DNA of 64,000 nucleotides from Candidatus Giovannonibacteria bacterium (GCA_016186825.1 JACPKW010000006.1:3191-67190); one strand, 5' to 3'. Shown: positions 13,696 to 37,736, numbered from the stretch's first letter. Program-made: numbers and translations. Notes: a model not told the origin generated them from the sequence alone.

Positions 13696-14040
13696 ATGAA
13701 AAAAGTCGCAAAAAAAATATTGCCTTATGCCGCCGCAGGGCTTCTGCCCCTCTTGGCTTTTGCCCAAACGGCAGAGTCAATTATCACTAGAATTGATCGA
13801 ATTCTCCAACAAGTAATTCCTATTCTTCTGATAATCGGCACGATCGTATTTCTGTGGGGAATAATTGTTTTTATCACAGCAGGCGCTTCTGAAGAGAAAA
13901 AGAGCTATGGAAAATATTTGATTATTTACGGACTTGTTGGCCTCTTTGTGATGGTGGCGATCTGGGGAATTGTCGGAGTTCTTGTAAACACTTTCGGAGT
14001 GGGGGGTAGGCGCGTTCCTCGCGATGTTGGCGGAATATAA
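13696..14040 (+). CDS. TrbC/VirB2-like (T4SS) pilin family protein
   Basis: 114 aa; signal peptide; IPILLIIGTIVFLWGIIVFITAGASEEKKSYGKYLIIYGLVGLFVMVAIWGIV two-helix pilin signature. Confidence 0.6.
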   Translation: MKKVAKKILPYAAAGLLPLLAFAQTAESIITRIDRILQQVIPILLIIGTIVFLWGIIVFITAGASEEKKSYGKYLIIYGLVGLFVMVAIWGIVGVLVNTFGVGGRRVPRDVGGI

Positions 14041-14055
14041 GCAGCAACTTTTTTA

Positions 14056-14328
14056 ATGCCTGCATTGATTGCATACGCCAAGAGCGCGGATGAGATAATT
14101 GATATAACGATTGCCGAAGTTATCCAGCCGTTTCTGATTGTTTTATTCGCGCTCGCGGCGATTCTCTTTTTCTGGGGAGTGGTCCAGTTCATCATGAACC
14201 CCGATAGCGAGGATAAAAAGGCGAGCGGGAGGCAGCATATGATATGGGGGCTGATCGGACTTGCAATAATGTTCGGCGTAAATGGGATTATTAAAATTCT
14301 TCAAAACTTCGTAGGACAGATAAAATAA
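14056..14328 (+). CDS. TrbC/VirB2-like pilin family protein
   Basis: 90 aa paralog (FLIVLFALAAILFFWGVVQFIMNPDSEDKKASGRQHMIWGLIGLAIMFGVNGI). Confidence 0.55.
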   Translation: MPALIAYAKSADEIIDITIAEVIQPFLIVLFALAAILFFWGVVQFIMNPDSEDKKASGRQHMIWGLIGLAIMFGVNGIIKILQNFVGQIK

Positions 14329-14329
14329 T

Positions 14330-14836
14330 ATGGACTTTTTAATTCCCGTAGCTAACGCGCAGACCTTCAAAGGCGCTGCGGACAATATCACAAACGCTCT
14401 CGAATCAGTCATCCCGATTCTCTTTTTAATCGCGACAATCGTATTTCTTTGGGGCGTTGTTTTATACATCACAGCGGCAGGTTCGGAGGATAAAAATAAA
14501 AAGGGGCATAAATATATTATCTGGGGGCTAGTCGGTTTGTTTGTAATGGTTGCCGTTTGGGGACTTGTAAGATTAATCACATCACTTGTTTTTGGAACTG
14601 CGATTTTGCCCCGTTCTGCTGATATCCCGTGTTTACCCGGACAAACCTGTAGCTCGAGTAATTCCGGAAATTCCGCCGACTGGAACTCTGGAGGAAGGTA
14701 TGAAGGCTGGTATCCGGAAGACCAAGAAGATGAATCAGGAAATAGTATAAATGTCAACAGCGGCGTATTTGAAGTCCCTACTCCGACAGATCCATGCGAA
14801 GGCGACAACCCGGCATATTGGGATCCTGACTGTTAA
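14330..14836 (+). CDS. TrbC/VirB2-like pilin family protein with Cys-containing acidic C-terminal tail
   Basis: 168 aa paralog (IPILFLIATIVFLWGVVLYITAAGSEDKNKKGHKYIIWGLVGLFVMVAVWGLV). Confidence 0.55.
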   Translation: MDFLIPVANAQTFKGAADNITNALESVIPILFLIATIVFLWGVVLYITAAGSEDKNKKGHKYIIWGLVGLFVMVAVWGLVRLITSLVFGTAILPRSADIPCLPGQTCSSSNSGNSADWNSGGRYEGWYPEDQEDESGNSINVNSGVFEVPTPTDPCEGDNPAYWDPDC

Positions 14837-31248: not shown

Positions 31249-31293
31249 ACACAAAACTAAAATTGCCCATGATGGGCAATTTTAGTTTTGTGT
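31249..31293 (+). terminator. perfect 22-bp-arm palindrome (hsp20 terminator)
   Basis: ACACAAAACTAAAATTGCCCAT-G-ATGGGCAATTTTAGTTTTGTGT, directly after the stop codon. Confidence 0.6.
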
Positions 31294-31389
31294 GCCGCGG
31301 GGGTGATCGGTCACATGTTGGCTTCGCCACTCGCGACCCCGCCTCGCGGTCGCCTCCGGCGACATCGCTCCGGCTTTCGATTCACCACG

Positions 31390-31477
31390 CGAGCGAAGCA
31401 GTTCGCTCGCTCCCACGGCAAAATTTCTTCGCGCGAGCGAAGCAGTTCGCTCGCTCCCACGGCAAAATTTCTTCGAA
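31390..31477. repeat. 2 x 44-nt tandem repeat each with GCGAGCGAA-GCAG-TTCGCTCGC hairpin
   Basis: two identical units in tRNA-Phe trailer; not CRISPR (only 2 units, no cas). Confidence 0.6.
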
Positions 31478-31482
31478 ATTTG

Positions 31483-31554
31483 TGCCGCGGGGGTGAATCG
31501 AACACCCGACGCCTACCTCTTCAGGGTAGCGCTCTGCCACTGAGCTACCGCGGC
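31483..31554 (-). tRNA. tRNA-Phe (GAA)
   Basis: GCCGCGG acceptor, loop CTGAAGA; 3'-end 22-nt segment duplicated at 31291-31313. Confidence 0.85.
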
Positions 31555-32104: not shown

Positions 32105-32175
32105 ACACTTTTGTGCGCGCTCGAGGGATCGAACCCCGGGCCTACTCGGTGTAAACGAGTCGCTCTGCCACTGAG
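32105..32175 (-). tRNA. tRNA-Val (TAC)
   Basis: GCGCGCT acceptor, loop TTTACAC. Confidence 0.85.
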
Positions 32176-32205
32176 CTAAGCGCGCATATTTTTAATTTTC
32201 TATCT

Positions 32206-32322
32206 ATGCGCAGTATTCTTGAATTAGTCCGAACCCCGGTAGTAAAGCAAAGCTTACTACGGGGCACGGCGCATTTCGCCGCCTGCGGCGGCGAGCCTGC
32301 CTGCCGGTAGGCAGGTTTGGCG
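32206..32322. repeat. island repeat module copy (hairpin motif + CCTGCCTGCCGGTAGGCAGG palindrome) immediately downstream of paralog P1
   Basis: GCAGTATTCTTGAATTAGTCCGAACCCCGGTAGTAAAGCAAAGCTTACT..GGGG shared with 35183-35260; palindrome shared with 35443-35462 and R repeats. Confidence 0.55.
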
Positions 32323-32330
32323 GCAAATTC

Positions 32331-33021
32331 TTATTGGATAAATTTAAAACTTCCAACCAATTCTTCAAAAGCAGCATTATCAAAAATCTCACCCCGTTTA
32401 TTCATTTTTATGGTTATGCCTTCAATCTTATCTCCTCCGCGTAAATACTTTAACGCCGTAATTGGTATGTATACCACCTCTAGAATTTCGTCACTACCAA
32501 TATTTTGTTCTGTAAACCGTGTCGCTTGCATACCACTCACAAGAACCACTTCCCGAAAATTAGATGAAGCTTTTCTTCCACGATCTTTCATTTTTCCAGC
32601 CAGTTCCTTTATTGAATCAATGCTTACTGGTATCGGATATATTTCAATGCTGTTTTGTAGTGAAGTTTGTGCTAAAGAAGGGGCGAAGAATAGTTCTTCC
32701 GATTTTGCTGCTTGTTGTGCTCCGGTTAGAAAACGCAGTTCTTCATTCCTATCATTTTTTGTGACAAGAACAAATTCAGCATTTTCATCGGCAAAATTGG
32801 TAATTGGATTTGGTCCAGTCGTATTCATAAACTTTGTGTAATCCAATGCAACTCGATAATTTTTCGGCAGAGAAAATGTATAACCCAATCTATTATTTAT
32901 GTAACTCGTTTTTTGTTCTGTGGTCGTGTTCGGTGTTTGAATGTCATTATCGCTCCCCCCTTTTTTTGTTAAGAACAGATAACCTCCAATTCCAAGCACG
33001 ACAATAACAAGTAGTATTATT
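32331..33021 (-). pseudogene. paralog P1 of anchored secreted-protein family; canonical ATG replaced by ACG (possible pseudogene or rare start)
   Basis: upstream in-frame codons encode ..T-NQKGFAKILIILLVIVVLGIGGYLF.. matching MNQKGFANI.. N-termini of P2-P4, but ATG->ACG; ORF-track start is internal GTG at 32999. Confidence 0.45.
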
Positions 33022-33083
33022 AAAATTTTAGCAAATCCCTTTTGGTTCGTATTGATAAAAATTTAAGTCAATGATTAAAAAAT

Positions 33084-33206
33084 TTTTCTTTTCCCCAAAA
33101 TTAAAATATGGTTCGAGCCGACCCGCCTGCATCAGCTATGCTGAAAGCATTGCGGGCAGGTGTTTTTCTATGGGTTCTTTACCTACCGGCAGGCAGGTTT
33201 GGCGGC
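33084..33206. repeat. R repeat copy R1 (5'-leader/intergenic module)
   Basis: TTTTCCCCAAAATTAAAATATGGTTCGAGCCGACCCGCCTGCATCAGCTATGCTGAAAGCATTGCGGGCAGG..CCTACCGGCAGGCAGGTTTGGCGGC; near-identical to 33972-34095 and 37383-37500. Confidence 0.6.
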
Positions 33207-33336
33207 ATTCAATCAAAAATTCGTAGAGCGAATACTTAAAGAATATAAGATTATGACAAAAATTTCAATTTCAAAAAAAGTACGAGCCCCAAGCAGAATT
33301 GAATTCCACGAGGGGCTCGAGTGGTCACCGACGCCG

Positions 33337-33819
33337 TTAGGCGAAGATTTCGGTGGCGTAGCGCTTGGAAAAGAAACGGAACTTGATCCGGTCGAGCATG
33401 GTAAGCGTCGCCTTGCCCCACCGCGCGAGGTTCACGAACACGGTGCCGTCGTTCGAATCCATGAAGTCCTTGAACTGGTAATCCACCGGGTCGCCCTTGT
33501 GGAACTCGAGGACGACGTCCCAGCCGTCCTCAATCGCCTGCATGCCAGTGAATATGCCACAGCGAGTGGTACTGCTGAACTGGATGAACTTGTCGCCCTG
33601 CTCGCTAGTCATTCGAACATCCACCATCTCGCACATCGCGCCGTACTTGCGGATCGCCTCGTCGATCGAGATCGTCCGCCCCTTGCCGGGAGCCCACCGC
33701 AGACCCGCCAGTTGTCCATCGTCGTAGATGTTCATCTGGAAAAGCGGCATAGGGTGACCCTTGAGGTTGAGAAACTCCTGGGCCTTCTTGAGCCCGCCGA
33801 GTGTAGGTTTGTAACCCAT
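33337..33819 (-). CDS. GC-rich foreign hypothetical protein (160 aa) occupying a paralog slot
   Basis: local GC ~60% vs ~40% genome; strong SD GGAGGG 7 nt upstream of ATG; own terminator GAGCCCC..GGGGCTC+T7 at ~33262-33305; balanced aa composition whereas + strand ORF 33160-33993 is antisense-like. Confidence 0.55.
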   Translation of the reverse strand: MGYKPTLGGLKKAQEFLNLKGHPMPLFQMNIYDDGQLAGLRWAPGKGRTISIDEAIRKYGAMCEMVDVRMTSEQGDKFIQFSSTTRCGIFTGMQAIEDGWDVVLEFHKGDPVDYQFKDFMDSNDGTVFVNLARWGKATLTMLDRIKFRFFSKRYATEIFA

Positions 33820-33971
33820 AACGGTTCCCTCCTTTCAATGTGCAGTTTGATTCCATCCAAGCACCATGCCTGGATTTCCTGCTATCCAACCATAATAGGA
33901 CTTGTGTGTCAAGCGCAACAAAAAATCACCATCTCTGGTGTTTCTCATTTCTTAACTCTTTGGATTAAAAA

Positions 33972-34170
33972 CTTTTCTTTCCCCCAAAATTAAAATATGG
34001 TTCGAGTCGACCCGCCTGCATCAGCTATGCTGAAAACATTGCGGGCAGGTGTTTTTCTCCAGGTTCCCTGCCTACCGGCAGGCAAGTTTTGCGGTTTTTA
34101 TCAGCGCGAACATCTTTATCATATCACAAACAACATTCCTTTCCCAATCTGGTGCAGTATTCTTGAATTA
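33972..34170. repeat. R repeat copy R2
   Basis: same module as R1/R5 plus tail ..CTGGTGCAGTATTCTTGAATTAGTCCGAACCC. Confidence 0.6.
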
Positions 34171-34447
34171 GTCCGAACCCATTTCGCCGCCGCACCGATA
34201 ACAATTTTCCTTCAACTTCGTTCAGGATGGTGAGCTTGCCGAATCAACAAGTTTTTCTTCTTGACCTGAGCTTATCGAAGGTTGGAGGCAGGAGTTATTT
34301 ACTGACTCACAACATGTTAACTACAATATCTTTCTGTTTATTAACATGTCCAACACAAGGCATATAGTGGTGATCAGTGATCTAGTTCTCCGATAACTCC
34401 TTCAATTTTTTATATTTAAGTTCTTTCGGTATGTGCGTAATTATAGA

Positions 34448-35080
34448 CTACCTTGATGCTTGATAGAATTTAATTGTTGCAATTGCGGCTTCAGAGGAAG
34501 CAAATATCTCATCAACACGATTTTTTTCTACATTAGGACCACCAAGAACTCGTATCGTGATTCCTTTATTAGTAAGTGGATGAATAAAATAGAGATCTTC
34601 TAAAATATTAATCACCACATTTGGATCAGAAGAGAAAAACTCTGTTTTGCAACCTTGAACGGATATTCCTCCTGAAGTTTTAATCTCAATTCCACCCCTT
34701 TTTATCCCTCCGCCCAAGGTATTATCACCAGTGCATCCTGATGACTGATATTCTTTCAGAGTATGATCGTCATTAGAATAGGTCCATGTAATATAATACT
34801 TAGGGGGATTAGACGGAATTAGAGCGTTAGCTTCTTTACTATCAAGCGCGTCTCCCCCGGAAATCAAATAACTAGCCCCTACATGGGGCTTCCATTTATT
34901 AACATCGTAGTGAATTTCTATACCAAATGCGTCGCTTCGAAAAATCCCTAACCCCATGCTATCGATCGTTTTCGTTGGAGATTGACTCAGATTTTTAATA
35001 AGCGCAAAATATCCAATCGTACCTACAAGTATCACAATGACTACTATCAAAACAATATTCGCAAATCCCTTTTGGTTCAT
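34448..35080 (-). CDS. paralog P2, anchored secreted protein
   Basis: 210 aa; MNQKGFANIVLIVVIVILVG N-terminus. Confidence 0.55.
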   Translation of the reverse strand: MNQKGFANIVLIVVIVILVGTIGYFALIKNLSQSPTKTIDSMGLGIFRSDAFGIEIHYDVNKWKPHVGASYLISGGDALDSKEANALIPSNPPKYYITWTYSNDDHTLKEYQSSGCTGDNTLGGGIKRGGIEIKTSGGISVQGCKTEFFSSDPNVVINILEDLYFIHPLTNKGITIRVLGGPNVEKNRVDEIFASSEAAIATIKFYQASR

Positions 35081-35126
35081 GTTAAAAATTTATTCGCTAT
35101 TAAGTTTTCCACTCATTATTAAAAAA

Positions 35127-35260
35127 TTTTCTTCCCCAAAAATTAAAATATGGTTCGATATTCTTAGTATAGCATTATTTTTGCAGTATTCTTGAATTAG
35201 TCCGAACCCCGGTAGTAAAGCAAAGCTTACTGCGGGGCATGGCGCATTTTGCCGCACCGA
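35127..35260. repeat. R repeat copy R3 (variant)
   Basis: TTTTCTTCCCCAAAAATTAAAATATGGTTCGAT + GCAGTATTCTTGAATTAGTCCGAACCCCGGTAGTAAAGCAAAGCTTACTGCGGGG. Confidence 0.5.
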
Positions 35261-35477
35261 TGCTTGCCCCGTACCAATCCTAAGCAAGAACTCGGCAATG
35301 GTAGTATGTAAGCCGAAGGCGATATCGCGAGATAAACTTAGATTTTAGAAGCGATATATTTGGGATTGGTGCGGGGACAATTTTCCCGCCGCATATTTAA
35401 AATTTTAGAAGGCGGGATCCCGTTAAAAACGGTGACAAGTTTTTCCCTGCCTGCCGGCAGGCAGGTTTGGCGGCAAA

Positions 35478-36116
35478 TTATTTAGTCCAAACAAAGGACG
35501 AAACAATATGATCAAAAACAGAATCGTATTTACTATCAAGACCATGTGCAAATCTAAACTCTGCAGTGTAATCTCCTTTCGTAATTGTCGCAATATACTG
35601 TTCAGATCCTGGTTCTCTTTTTTGTATAAGAATTTCGGTACTGCCAGATTTTATCTTTCTCAAGGTAGTGTAAGTGTACCAAACTGGGGGCGGCGGTGTT
35701 TTTTTGTAATTGATAATTACGACAGAAATACTTTTTTGTTCAGAGGTTTCTCCTGGAGGCAAAAAATAAACACTCGTCCCAATCTCACCAGTTCCAAACT
35801 CTTTTATAGACCAATTGAGCGGATATTCAGCCGAATATCCAAACCACTGATTTGTTTTGCTATATATCTTCCAGCCGCTATCAGCTGGTTTCTTTACTGG
35901 TTCGCTCCCTCCACTTTTTATCGACTCACTGTTAACAAGTGGTTTAGGTTCACTCTGTATATTTTCCGCCGGAGTTTTATCGGAGCTTGTAGATTCGACA
36001 GGCTGATTTACAGGAGGATTCTGTGGGCGTTGCCTCAGTACAAAATATCCAGTCGCGCCAACAAGTACAACGACCAGAACAATTACGATTATATTTGCAA
36101 ATCCCTTTTGATTCAT
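35478..36116 (-). CDS. paralog P3, anchored secreted protein
   Basis: 212 aa; MNQKGFANIIVIVLVVVLVG; WKIYSKTNQWFGYSAEYPLNW motif. Confidence 0.55.
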   Translation of the reverse strand: MNQKGFANIIVIVLVVVLVGATGYFVLRQRPQNPPVNQPVESTSSDKTPAENIQSEPKPLVNSESIKSGGSEPVKKPADSGWKIYSKTNQWFGYSAEYPLNWSIKEFGTGEIGTSVYFLPPGETSEQKSISVVIINYKKTPPPPVWYTYTTLRKIKSGSTEILIQKREPGSEQYIATITKGDYTAEFRFAHGLDSKYDSVFDHIVSSFVWTK

Positions 36117-36126
36117 ATGATTAAAA

Positions 36127-36296
36127 CTTTTCTTCCCCCAAAATTAAAATATGGTTCGAGCCGATTGTTTTAACGGGTTCTATGCCTACCGGCAGGCAAG
36201 TTTTGCGGTTTTTATCAGCGCGAACGTCTTTATAATATCACAAACAATGTTCCTTTCTAAACTGGTGCAGAATTCTTGAATTAGTCCGAACCCATT
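36127..36296. repeat. R repeat copy R4 (internal deletion variant)
   Basis: CTTTTCTTCCCCCAAAATTAAAATATGGTTCGAGCCGA..CCTACCGGCAGGCAAGTTTTGCGG..CTGGTGCAGAATTCTTGAATTAGTCCGAACCC. Confidence 0.55.
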
Positions 36297-36435
36297 TCGC
36301 CGCAGTTACCGACTCTTTTTGTGGCCATATTGATGAGATGTTTTATGCTGGTAATCACCCCTTGATTTTACCAACGGCGGTGTCGCAGGGGTATTACCGA
36401 TGTATCTCATCTTCTGCAATAATTGCAATCTCTTT

Positions 36436-36690
36436 TTATAATTCGGATTTATTTTTTAAACGATTTTCGATAAAAAGCGAAACAAAAAGCAATATCAATG
36501 CCCCTAATGCGATTGGGGTCGCAAAATATTTATAAAACGGCCATGGGCAAAAACCGCGTTCATATAAAGGTGCATTCTGCATTTCTGTAATGCATTTGTT
36601 TTCAACTGTTAAAATAACGACAAGAAAAATAAAATAAAGCACGACGATCGCAAGACTTAGCAATTTGAAAAACTTTATGAAAACCACCAT
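36436..36690 (-). CDS. hypothetical small membrane protein
   Basis: 84 aa, two TM helices, Cys pair. Confidence 0.35.
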   Translation of the reverse strand: MVVFIKFFKLLSLAIVVLYFIFLVVILTVENKCITEMQNAPLYERGFCPWPFYKYFATPIALGALILLFVSLFIENRLKNKSEL

Positions 36691-36767
36691 ATGGTCTTAG
36701 AATTAAATTAATTAATAAATTTGAAAGTTAGGAGGATTTCATTAACTGTTTTCCTTTTAGCGGTAAA

Positions 36768-37328
36768 CTATTCAGCATACTTTAAGGTCTTAGCGATTGC
36801 TTCCATCTGAGAAACATGGGCATCAACGAGTGATTTATTAAAGCATCCGGAATCAAATCTATCATATCGCGTTTGACCATCAAATTTCGTGTATGCAATT
36901 TGTAGCGTTACATCATCACCCTCACATTTTATAAGAGTTTCATCTACCATCTCGCCATCGATTAAAATTTTCTTAGCCCAAACTGTGCCATAACCGATAT
37001 ATCCACCAACTTCTTTCATGCCAGCAAAAAACGTAAATTGAAAACCGGGTTTTTCAAAAATCACGTTTGTCCAAGTAGAGCCGGGTTTTTCGGATAACTT
37101 TAGCTCCAATGGATATTTTAGCTCAAATCCATATTTTTCACTTCTGTATGTTTTCCAGCTTGCAGTTTCGCTATTAGATATAGGAGGAGTTTGTGTTGTG
37201 GCTGGAGGCATTTTTTGTTCAGCAGAAGGAGCCGAGATTTTTACGAATGCAAAATATCCGCCGACAGCTACGATGGCAACGATTACTATTATCAAAACAA
37301 TATTCGCAAATCCTTTTTGATTTTTCAT
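36768..37328 (-). CDS. paralog P4, anchored secreted protein
   Basis: 186 aa; MKNQKGFANIVLIIVIVAIVAVGG; WKTYRSEKYGFELKYPLELK. Confidence 0.55.
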   Translation of the reverse strand: MKNQKGFANIVLIIVIVAIVAVGGYFAFVKISAPSAEQKMPPATTQTPPISNSETASWKTYRSEKYGFELKYPLELKLSEKPGSTWTNVIFEKPGFQFTFFAGMKEVGGYIGYGTVWAKKILIDGEMVDETLIKCEGDDVTLQIAYTKFDGQTRYDRFDSGCFNKSLVDAHVSQMEAIAKTLKYAE

Positions 37329-37382
37329 ATTAATATGATTATTAGTTAATAATTTCCGACTTTATGTTTATGATTAAAAAAT

Positions 37383-37560
37383 TTTTTTCCCCAAAATTAA
37401 AACATGGTTCGAGCCGACCCGCCTGCATCAGCTATGCTGAAAACATTGCGGGCAGGTGTTTTTCTCCAGGTTCCCTGCCTACCGGCAGGCAGGTTTTGCG
37501 GTTTTTATCAGCGCAAACGTCTTTATAATATCACAAACAACATTCCTTTCTAAACTGGTG
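37383..37560. repeat. R repeat copy R5, fused at its distal end to a tRNA 3' half
   Basis: same module as R1/R2; ends ..AAACTGGTG|CCCCCGCCAAGAATCGAACTTGG. Confidence 0.6.
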
Positions 37561-37736
37561 CCCCCGCCAAGAATCGAACTTGGATCTACTCCTTACCTGC
37601 CCACCGTTGCCTGCGCCCTCGGCAGGAATCGAACCTACATCTAGGGCTTAGAAGACCCCTATTCTATCCATTGAACTACGAGGGCAACTTAGGCAGGTGG
37701 GGAAGGGAGCTATTCTATCCGTTGAACTACAGGGGC
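37556..37736 (-). tRNA. candidate interrupted/split tRNA (Arg-like body) whose anticodon loop contains tRNA-Arg(TCT); CCA encoded
   Basis: 5' half 37701-37736: GCCCCTG-TA-GTTC-AACGGATA-GAAT-A-GCTCC-CTTCC; 3' half 37556-37592: AA-GGAGT-AGAT-CCAAG-TTCGATT-CTTGG-CGGGGGC-A-CCA; acceptor 7/7 (one G.U), anticodon stem 5/5 (one G.U); canonical D and T loops. Confidence 0.45.
37614..37685 (-). tRNA. tRNA-Arg (TCT)
   Basis: GCCCTCG/CGAGGGC acceptor, loop CTTCTAA, TTCGATT T-loop. Confidence 0.85.

Follow-up and report, generated by a model that had tools for sequence, protein, structure and literature searches.

The array and its bounding tRNA genes

A 64,000-nt stretch of Candidatus Giovannonibacteria bacterium (GCA_016186825.1, JACPKW010000006.1:3191-67190), hereafter the window, carries on its minus strand a 5.4 kb array of genes placed between a tRNA-Arg(TCT) and a tRNA-Val(TAC) gene. 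The array holds four genes with a common amino-terminal leader (the KGF-leader genes P1 to P4) and five copies of a composite repeat (R modules), and is analysed here as a candidate array of small mobile cassettes. The flanking tRNA genes reported in the initial annotation of this sequence are present. The bounding tRNAs and the genes are the following (ORF, open reading frame):

37702-37736, minus strand: outer tRNA-Arg(TCT), 5' half; in the sister species the single tRNA-Arg(tct) has a matching anticodon arm
37596-37701, minus strand: 106-nt insert in the anticodon loop of the outer tRNA-Arg, holding the inner tRNA-Arg(TCT) between flanks CCCACCTGCC...GGTGGGCAGG
37613-37685, minus strand: inner tRNA-Arg(TCT), complete, inside the 106-nt insert
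37556-37595, minus strand: 3' half of the outer tRNA-Arg(TCT), ending in GCACCA; putative docking (attB-type) arm and start of the array
36768-37328, minus strand: P4, 186 aa, with KGF leader and predicted transmembrane helix, disordered linker and PsbP-fold domain; cargo of cassette A
36436-36690, minus strand: 84-aa ORF with two transmembrane segments, the other gene of cassette A; gene calling on contig L158 found it too
35478-36116, minus strand: P3, 212-aa KGF-leader protein, cargo of cassette B, its ATG abutted by the leader W
34448-35080, minus strand: P2, 210-aa KGF-leader protein, cargo of cassette C
33820-33962, minus strand: second conserved leader, with a terminator-like hairpin (33927-33940), a TTGACA-type promoter-like site, the leader itself and a Shine-Dalgarno AAGGAGG
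33337-33819, minus strand: GC-rich cargo gene, 160 aa, behind R2 and the second leader
32331-33050, minus strand: P1, KGF-leader gene with ACG in place of ATG
32113-32185, minus strand: tRNA-Val(TAC), chromosomal flank, directly after tRNA-Arg in the sister species

The split tRNA-Arg described earlier is genuine. Deletion of the 106-nt insert in silico, joining 37702-37736 to 37556-37595, yields a perfect 75-nt tRNA-Arg(tct) with CCA as judged by ARAGORN. The insert lies between anticodon positions 35 and 36 of the outer gene, which by sequence comparison is the orthologue of the single tRNA-Arg(tct) in the sister species. Like the inner tRNA-Arg, tRNA-Arg genes at four other loci (L127, L128, L144 and L153) are bracketed by complementary flanks of the CCTGCC(C)...GGCAGG type; these brackets may represent a tRNA precursor stem or a mobile tRNA unit.

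The repeat combines several sub-modules

Within the 64 kb window, W (GAACCATRTTTTAATTTTKGGG) occurs five times against 0.02 expected by chance, the palindrome H1 (CCTGCCTRCCGGYAGGCAGG) six times (32296-32315, 33178-33197, 34067-34086, 35446-35465, 36181-36200 and 37474-37493) and the tRNA-like tail X' (GGTTCGGACTAATTCAAGAATWCTGC) four times, the last two against none expected. Every copy lies inside the array. The initial annotation had described one module with small hairpins, a palindrome and a tRNA-like tail; all these parts are present, but alignment of the copies revealed a mosaic rather than a uniform unit. Sub-modules come in the order X'-Y-H1-Z-W in combinations that differ from copy to copy: R4 lacks Z, and R3 consists of a short promoter-like stretch and W only. 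A copy does precede each KGF-leader gene as proposed, but R2 precedes the unrelated 160-aa ORF, and the copy before P1 lacks the X'/Y junction. The modules are distributed as follows (UTR, untranslated region):

37494-37555, minus strand: R5 Y arm (element-side, after the junction), with promoter-like TTTAGA-18-TGaTATTAT at 37554-37525
37474-37493, palindromic: R5 H1, CCTGCCTACCGGCAGGCAGG, inserted in AAACCGCAAAA^GAACC
37418-37456, minus strand: R5 Z hairpin (CCTGCCCGC...GCAGGCGGG), inserted at AAAACA^TCGGC
37372-37417, minus strand: R5 W core (TCGGCTCGAACCATGTTTTAATTTTGGGGAAAAAAATTTTTTAATC), 94% identical to the pan-Patescibacteria consensus
36262-36305, minus strand: X', tRNA 3'-end mimic (..GGTTCGGACTAATTCAAGAATTCTG-CA-CCAG), at the junction of cassettes A and B, with GTTCGG 24 nt from CA
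36117-36261, minus strand: R4, with Y arm and promoter-like site (36261-36232), H1 (36181-36200) and W (36123-36165)
35434-35477, minus strand: recombinase-codon remnant (GCCGCCAAA..GAAAAACTTGTC) split by H1 (35446-35465), directly 3' of the P3 stop
35182-35255, minus strand: X' carrying an extra hairpin, where cassette B ends; CA comes next, and the sequence beyond it is unrelated
35081-35181, minus strand: R3, promoter-like stretch (TGcTATACT) and W (35118-35158), upstream of P2
34149-34195, minus strand: X' and CACCAG, junction of cassettes C and D
33963-34148, minus strand: R2, with Y arm (TTGGGA-18-TGaTATGAT), H1 (34067-34086), Z hairpin and W (33963-34006)
33054-33336, minus strand: GC-rich cassette 3' UTR, joined at GCCGCCAAA-H1 (33178-33197) to Z and W (33071-33121) of the P1 cassette
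32209-32325, minus strand: distal end of the array, GCCGCCAAA, H1 (32296-32315) and X' with an extra hairpin (32211-32282); 24 nt further lies tRNA-Val

The extended -10-type promoter-like sites in the Y arms of R5, R4 and R2 are consensus matches only, as are the TTGACA-type site and Shine-Dalgarno sequence of the GC-rich cassette and the TGcTATACT before the W of R3, which was spotted by eye. Arms like that of R5 come after a tRNA or X' at three other loci (L124, L013 and L050), and a stretch resembling that of R3 follows a tRNA in L027. The consensus leader of other genomes has no H1, and different hairpins occupy the insertion point of Z in L014, L106 and L123.

H1 is always preceded by (G/A)CCGC(C/A)AAA, and more generally small GC-rich palindromes occupy fixed points or deletion junctions of the modules. 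Z-like hairpins (CCTGCCCGC..GCAGGCGGG) of other genomes stand at the same AAAACA^TCGGC point or in the loop of a further module, M, and an exact H1 was found in 2 of 157 fetched loci. The H1 and Z palindromes may be mobile hairpins or recombination scars.

The modules delimit probable cassette units

Read from the outer tRNA-Arg, the array divides into four units (37558-36268, 36265-35184, 35181-34155 and 34152-32211), the regular ones measuring 1.0-1.3 kb and having defined end modules. The first junction, from 37560 downward, reads ..GGGGG-CA-CCAG-Y. Those at 36267 and 34154 read X'-CA-CCAG-Y and are both attP-like, as expected for head-to-tail units. At 35183 X'-CA is followed by other sequence, and at 32210, immediately before tRNA-Val, X' is followed by CG and the flank. 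Four head-to-tail units would result: A with P4 and the 84-aa ORF, B with P3, C with P2, and D/E with the GC-rich ORF and P1.

Unit D/E is read as a fusion by deletion of the GC-rich and P1 cassettes, in which the X'/Y junction was deleted. In the homologous locus L154 the 3' UTR of the GC-rich gene runs on into L5-M'-X' (L5 being a module 3' of cargo genes), whereas in the window it jumps directly to the W leader of P1. An L5/W fusion of comparable kind occurs in L159, and L5 remnants with an inserted H1 follow the stop codons of P3 and P1.

We consider it likely, on this arrangement and on the comparisons below, that the block consists of four cassette units without recombinase, together carrying five W-leader genes, each with its promoter-like signal, that accreted at the 3' end of a tRNA gene.

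The assembly itself bears on this. A Logan contig from a related sample, L158, corresponds to window positions 37414-36274 at 99.8% identity and ends exactly at W and X', so the modules are assembly branch points; another, L001, ends near 31.3 kb of the window, and homologous cassettes are found mostly on contigs of 1-3 kb. The contig of this metagenome-assembled genome (MAG) might then have been stitched together through dispersed repeats into an array that exists in no real cell. We regard this as very unlikely, given that comparable arrays stand on independent long contigs (L017 and L161), that the outer tRNA junctions are specific and that the modules differ enough (70-95% identity) for reads to bridge them.

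The site is empty or differently occupied in relatives

The valyl-tRNA synthetase (ValRS) encoded in the window is 100% identical to a protein that bears the name Candidatus Giovannonibacteria. In the nearest species found (L002-L007, ValRS 75% identical), the gap between tRNA-Arg(tct) and tRNA-Val(tac) is 13 nt. Synteny around it is kept (ValRS-PrsW-Hsp20 ... PilO-PilN-PilM), and no module motif, W and H1 included, was found at the site. A third Giovannonibacteria species (L161, ValRS 71%) carries a DUF2283 gene pair and one W cassette downstream of tRNA-Arg(tct), beside pil genes; this cassette holds a different GC-rich gene and ends in L5-M'-X'. The block is thus an insertion relative to the sister species, and the content of the site differs in the third species. 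Variation in content among relatives was the test proposed for the array at the outset. The alternative put forward with it, that the R modules are simply promoter and UTR carried along by ordinary gene duplication, fails because content varies and unrelated genes lie downstream.

The individual cassettes have relatives elsewhere. In L154, a locus of 41% GC, a homologous GC-rich gene (58.8% GC) sits behind a tRNA with a leader and 3' UTR highly similar to those of the window. P4 is 72-75% identical to proteins of other metagenomes; in L159 a 72% homologue has a different neighbour cassette. An array behind tRNA-Arg(tcg) in L017 comprises two KGx-leader genes, an insertion sequence fragment and another W-preceded gene. 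Over 160 nt, the 5' coding region of P3 together with W is 78% identical to a cargo cassette of L024. From these sequences we infer that the cassettes are mobile and that they travel as units.

When metagenomes were scanned with the 28-nt 3' half of the outer tRNA, many unrelated tRNA-Arg genes were matched but no strain variant of the array; the scan did give an occupied/empty pair for another tRNA-Arg (L142/L146 versus L144).

The same data speak to whether the repeats could be promoter-bearing elements, similar to miniature inverted-repeat transposable elements (MITEs), that inserted independently upstream of resident, non-mobile genes. Minimal W copies of about 55 nt, without X or M, directly follow tRNAs or other sequence in L019, L028, L119 and L008, and a 60% relative of P4 in L156 is an ordinary chromosomal gene without modules, both as such insertions would predict. 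However, the sister species lacks genes and modules alike, cargo moves with its 5' and 3' modules (L154 compared with the window), the units are regular with defined ends, and cargo GC differs from that of the host. The units also carry genes, and the end modules of the window are direct rather than inverted, which is not the organization of a MITE. Independent insertion is unlikely by this evidence, which fits transfer of whole cassettes.

The W leader is widespread in Patescibacteria

A scan of species-representative genomes with the W motif yielded at least 118 contig stretches; counts of loci given here and below refer to the matches listed. Almost all are Patescibacteria MAGs with many lineage names, among them Jorgensen-, Wolfe-, Nomura-, Falkow-, Magasanik-, Doudna-, Yanofsky-, Taylor-, Kaiser- and Zambryskibacteria. 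Toward the downstream gene the consensus reads (IRa)-CTGGTG-CAGTATTCTTGAATTAGTCCGAAC..(X)..GAGGAAGTCCCCCCGCGAAAATTCGGAAAGGCGGCGGAGCCGCACCGCTC (M) AAAACCGCAAAAGAACCCGGAGAAAAACATCGGCTCGAACCATATTTTAATTTTGGGGGAAGAAAATTTTTTAATCAT (W), where IRa is an inverted repeat described below. Its last ~75 nt show 80-99% conservation per column, followed by a sharp fall after ..TTTTTTAATC(AT).

What lies downstream is diverse. Taking the first ATG-initiated ORF of at least 50 aa after each of 123 W copies, we counted 19 KGF-type proteins, one large serine recombinase (LSR) and 87 other diverse products, with no such ORF in 16 cases. Soluble and membrane proteins are found among the 87, as is one lipoprotein-like leader. 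Of 124 W copies, 38 have a co-oriented tRNA at most 400 nt upstream, where ~4.6% would be expected.

These numbers bear on ordinary duplication as an account of the array, in which a single gene for a secreted protein was copied in tandem along with promoter and 5' UTR, the coding parts having diverged afterwards. Four head-to-tail genes with a common leader peptide and a common W leader are what this would produce. Yet the W copies of the window are 92-98% identical to the external, pan-Patescibacteria consensus, while the P proteins are only 22-31% identical to each other, a contrast that argues against ordinary duplication. Modules stand before about 100 unrelated genes in other genomes, the best relatives of P4 are in other metagenomes, and the whole block is absent from the sister species. 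Since the P proteins share only ~60 residues and one repeat precedes an unrelated gene of 58% GC, the array did not originate by local gene duplication, an explanation we hold to be most improbable, and the accretion of separate cassettes is preferred.

W does not resemble a riboswitch or structured leader, its consensus folding worse than shuffled sequences (z = +1.6); the modest structure of the R5 leader (z = -2.1) is due to the inserted H1 and Z hairpins. Rfam returned tRNAs only, both at the gathering threshold and at E <= 1, so that a known RNA family is unsupported. Neither the W motif in IMG/VR viral contigs nor the element end sequence in GenBank phages and PLSDB plasmids gave any match. 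In the literature on Patescibacteria, the Candidate Phyla Radiation (CPR) or Parcubacteria together with serine recombinases, no description of this system was found. The proposed mobile cassettes belong to an apparently undescribed family of serine-recombinase elements.

A large serine recombinase lies beside related modules

An LSR homologue was present within the fetched stretch at 36 loci. It measures ~490-520 aa, comprises Resolvase, Recombinase and Zn_ribbon_recom domains and starts with MKYILYARKS, thus carrying Ser10. Identity is 75-95% between differently named lineages and below 28% to known phage integrases. In at least 12 loci the 3' end of the gene overlaps the 3' end of a convergent tRNA gene (Arg, Leu or Gly). 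The parts are usually arranged as tRNA(..G-CA)-CCAx-IRa' <- LSR <- W3' | IRa-CTGGTG-X-M-W -> cargo -> L5-M'-X'-CA | flank. In L142 and L146 the LSR is co-oriented behind a tRNA-Arg, and the related tRNA-Arg of L144 is unoccupied.

Several parts of the repeat can be traced to this gene. AAAACCGCAAAAGAACCCGG, at the start of W, and GCCGCCAAAGAAAAACTTGAAATTGTC, in L5 3' of the cargo genes, lie next to each other early in the LSR coding sequence; the codons ..KNIGLNHIL.. near its 3' end are the counterpart of GAAAAACATCGGCTYGAACCATATTTT, and ATTTTGGGGGAAGAAAATTTTTTAATC matches its upstream region. The counterpart of the remnant behind P3 (35434-35477) reads gccgccaaagaaaaacttgaaattgtc in the LSR coding sequence. 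Further remnants of 9-10 aa were detected in the window by tblastn at 34129-34155 and 36145-36174. Parts of the repeat are accordingly read as derived from the LSR gene and its upstream region.

The earlier statement that the window has no integrase holds for the LSR, as judged by tblastn, and LSR genes that end at tRNA 3' ends were found at related loci. Since the LSR is absent from the window and stands beside related modules, the array is a recombinase-less derivative rather than an autonomous member of the family.

In L024 (2860-5830) and about 50 other loci, cargo units lie between ~100-nt inverted repeats (X-M / M'-X'), and the recombinase core lies between inverted repeats of ~110 nt (IRa'/IRa), one of which encodes the last 34 LSR residues. 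The composite element thus holds an internal inverted copy of its own junction, and inversion of segments by the recombinase is possible. The locus could accordingly be one of phase or antigenic variation, where surface proteins are switched on and off by recombinase-driven inversion; the LSR in fact occurs in both orientations relative to the tRNA (L112 compared with L142), and cargo is enriched in surface proteins. In the window, however, all X' copies are in direct orientation, every cassette comes with a promoter-like site of its own and a recombinase is lacking nearby, and no pair of sequences with both orientations of one segment was found. An inversion locus is quite improbable here, and we retain the stepwise addition of cassettes.

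The two MAGs of loci L112 and L075 are 91% identical over 3.4 kb that takes in the left flank, the cargo cassette and the LSR. Their similarity stops precisely at the LSR 3' end, next to which lies tRNA-Arg(tcg) in one MAG and tRNA-Gly(ccc) in the other, as would fit a rearrangement or a renewed insertion at the boundary of the element.

X' resembles an attP-type half-site

Of 121 X' copies (..GGTTCGGACTAATTCAAGAATACTG), ~108 run directly into CA. Beyond this CA stand either arms of the form CCA(G/C)..AGGAA (IRa' or short promoter-like Y-type arms) or unrelated flanks. At CA-CCAx..RGGAA junctions, the distance between GTTCRR and CA is 19 nt in each of the 26 left arms with a tRNA T-arm/acceptor pattern, several of which were checked as tRNA genes with ARAGORN, and 24 nt in 37 X-type arms. 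Among serine integrase sites, attB has the motif recognized by the zinc ribbon 5 bp nearer to its centre than attP does (PMC3783163). The 5-bp offset of GTTCG, the T-loop motif of tRNAs, fits this rule, which would make X' an attP-type arm mimicking the T-loop and acceptor of a tRNA, and real tRNA ends attB-type. The 'tRNA-3'-end-like tail' of the initial annotation thus gains a candidate function, its attP-type half-site behaviour being supported by the spacing. Crossover would take place at CA or the adjacent AC dinucleotide.

Elsewhere in the window (31292-31554, minus strand), a 16-17-nt copy of the tRNA-Phe 3' end (tcacccccgcggcaca) lies 190 nt downstream of tRNA-Phe, with a 2 x 44-nt tandem repeat (31381-31468) between the two. 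This duplication has the appearance of a scar left by an integration at tRNA-Phe that has since decayed.

Cargo genes and their products

The four KGF-leader genes had been presented as paralogs. ORFs for P2, P3 and P4 are indeed found at the positions given for them, with the amino terminus M(K)NQKGFANI, but P1 lacks an ATG: ACG stands at 33048-33050 where the other three have ATG, an in-frame TAA lies 15 nt upstream, and the mechanical ORF starts from a GTG at 32999. P1 has probably lost its start codon or uses a non-canonical one, being in the former case a pseudogene. In L158 (SRR12113390), whose P4 cassette is otherwise 99.8% identical, ATA replaces the P4 start ATG at position ~87; loss of start codons in cassette genes may be recurrent. 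As to paralogy, leader, linker and first-strand motif are shared, but the resemblance ends there: in profile comparison the match of P1 and P2 to the P4 family is confined to the ~60 amino-terminal residues that make up leader, linker and first strand.

P4 alone was modelled. A transmembrane helix is predicted at residues 6-27, followed by a disordered linker, a beta-rich domain and a C-terminal helix (AlphaFold2 model, mean predicted local distance difference test score 76). The top Foldseek matches of the mature domain in the PDB were CyanoP and PsbP (E 4e-5 to 5e-4, probability 1.0, TM-score 0.46-0.56). With PsbP_2 (PF18933), P4 scores 21.8 bits, below the cut-off of 27, and 11 of 19 members of the P4 family reach E <= 0.01 (best 1.2e-12). 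By this model P4 is a membrane-anchored protein with a PsbP-like fold. For P1-P3, the GC-rich ORF and the 84-aa ORF, Pfam, NCBIfam and PHROGs gave nothing above threshold, and the exact P3 protein is not on record.

The caution that the KGFANI leader is only superficially prepilin-like was fair. In KG|FANIVLI, G-1 and F+1 are present, V or I stands at +5 in place of Glu, and there is no N_methyl Pfam match; a canonical pilin leader within the window reads G|MTLIE. The leader thus appears to fall short of a class III (type IV pilin-like) signal peptide, and it may nevertheless be cut by a prepilin peptidase.

GC content over the 160-aa ORF is 0.55-0.58 in 300-nt windows, compared with ~0.40 nearby. 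No phage match was found for it. Its homologues, up to 87% identical, bear only Patescibacteria-lineage names where the source names them, and the gene has the same flanks elsewhere, so that contamination from outside the CPR was rejected. Cassettes with GC-rich genes (54-59% GC) in hosts of ~40% GC form a sub-class, found in L112 (1071-1562), L075, L161 (~14000-14360) and the window (33337-33819). Its leader, with terminator-like hairpin, TTGACA promoter-like site and strong Shine-Dalgarno sequence, also occurs in L112, L154 and L161, and one such gene encodes a lipoprotein-like leader (MKRLFCLIALVGLLAGCG). In L155 (Kaiserbacteria, 59% GC), a homologue of the GC-rich gene sits behind a tRNA without W or X.

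Proposed mechanism and points against it

The view of the locus as a cassette array or successive accretion at a tRNA, first raised in the initial annotation, is supported by the empty sister site, the occurrence of W upstream of unrelated genes, the LSR and the attP-type X'. In the proposed mechanism, an autonomous form of the element would encode the LSR and dock at the 3' end of tRNA genes ending in GCACCA. A cassette would start with an element arm (CCAG and Y) directly after the junction CA; this arm would supply a promoter-like site and the nearly invariant, unstructured AU-rich leader W before the cargo, and Y and W would drive cargo expression. The cassette would end with X', mimic of the tRNA T-loop and acceptor end. 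Neighbouring cassettes, starting with CCAG-Y and ending with X', therefore meet at X'-CA-CCAG-Y, which resembles an intact attP. The LSR would move cassettes in trans, and arrays could lengthen either through further rounds of recombinase action or through homologous recombination among the conserved modules. As the cargo consists mostly of membrane-anchored secreted proteins, with a PsbP-like fold in P4, the site suggests a swap-in store of surface proteins.

Several points weigh against this interpretation. Serine integrases normally recombine attP only with attB, so tandem attP-like junctions need another route, homologous recombination and relaxed specificity being candidates. The X-M / M'-X' inverted repeats and the internal inverted junction copy are unexplained by a simple integration model, and the Y arms of the window have a longer spacer before AGGAA than common arms. 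The window holds no LSR gene, and no IntI tyrosine recombinase was found beside the cassettes, the window itself not having been screened for tyrosine recombinases. An excised circle, a strain-level empty-site pair and read-level variation were not obtained, the sole near-identical contig, L158, showing the same cassette. Finally, as the MAG was assembled through repeats 70-95% identical, cassette order could be partly wrong.

Comparison with known systems

SCCmec and pseudo-SCC composite islands of staphylococci (SCC, staphylococcal cassette chromosome) rely on the CcrAB large serine recombinases and insert at the 3' end of rlmH. In both systems the target of insertion by an LSR is a conserved gene's 3' end, the junction repeats form anew so that units stack in tandem, and stacked units may lack a recombinase and be served in trans. 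In contrast to SCC, the targets here would be the 3' ends of many tRNA genes, one recombinase replaces the CcrA/B pair and stands apart from known phage LSRs (<28% identity), and the units are single-gene cassettes of ~1 kb with built-in promoter-like site and leader, cargo having inverted repeats of ~100 nt.

Integron cassettes are recombined by the IntI tyrosine recombinase at attC sites defined by folded structure, and are expressed from one Pc promoter. Single-gene units in one orientation, a fixed docking site and diverse cargo that differs between relatives are common to both. Here, however, the modules are conserved in sequence (80-99%), W is unstructured and each cassette has its own promoter-like site. 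The array is not an integron, the recombinase beside related cassettes being of the serine type and attC-like structure being absent.

Cis-mobilizable elements (CIMEs) and the accretion of integrative and conjugative elements (ICEs) in streptococci involve a tyrosine integrase; Tn4451/TnpX represents serine transposons with circular excision and no tRNA targeting. Recombinase-less, att-bounded units that the recombinase of a related element can move are a likeness to CIMEs, from which the present system differs, as from ICEs, in the type of integrase and in having no conjugation module. With Tn4451/TnpX it shares a serine recombinase, and tRNA targeting occurs here only.

Tycheposons of Prochlorococcus carry a tyrosine recombinase in 910 of 937 tycheposon-type elements, many with replication modules, and cargo of up to 10 kb or more (bioRxiv 10.1101/2020.12.28.424599). 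They too are tRNA-integrating cargo elements in a streamlined genome, in which each new insertion displaces earlier ones into an island and degenerate remnants that bear partial copies of the tRNA survive. The related loci described here differ in having an LSR and no replication genes, which sets them outside the tycheposon class, as well as in their single-gene cargo and in the X' mimic that replaces the partial tRNA.

Phage serine integrases (A118/LI, Bxb1 and phiC31; PMC3783163) have the same three-domain recombinase and 5-bp half-site offset. Here, unlike in phages, there are no phage genes, the element totals ~2.5-3 kb and many alternative tRNA targets are used; W is absent from IMG/VR and the element end from GenBank phages and PLSDB. 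Compared with an LSR element, the window lacks the recombinase gene, shows site-specific insertion against an empty relative and appears to carry the 5-bp attB/attP offset.

Implications for Patescibacteria

Patescibacteria (CPR) have tiny genomes and, to our knowledge, few mobile elements have been described for them. A sequence of ~60-200 nt that hardly varies among at least 118 contigs of many lineages, and that is tied to a serine recombinase, tRNA ends and about 100 distinct cargo genes, suggests that a compact element often transfers genes. Such an element explains why assemblies of CPR metagenomes break and why short orphan contigs occur in them. For a new clade of serine integrases it provides a set of natural attP/attB pairs whose targets are tRNA 3' ends, and at the present locus it would form a hotspot of surface-protein swapping beside a pilus operon. 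More tentatively, and with rather less confidence than we place in the cassette array itself, the family might amount to a phylum-wide system of cassette exchange doing the job of integrons, in which a dedicated LSR clade docks single-gene cassettes of ~1 kb at the CCA end of many tRNA genes. The cassettes, each with promoter-like site, leader and tRNA-end mimic, would be stacked into arrays, rich in surface and secreted proteins and traded across class-level lineages. If true, this would be one of the main routes by which these reduced and largely episymbiotic bacteria adapt.

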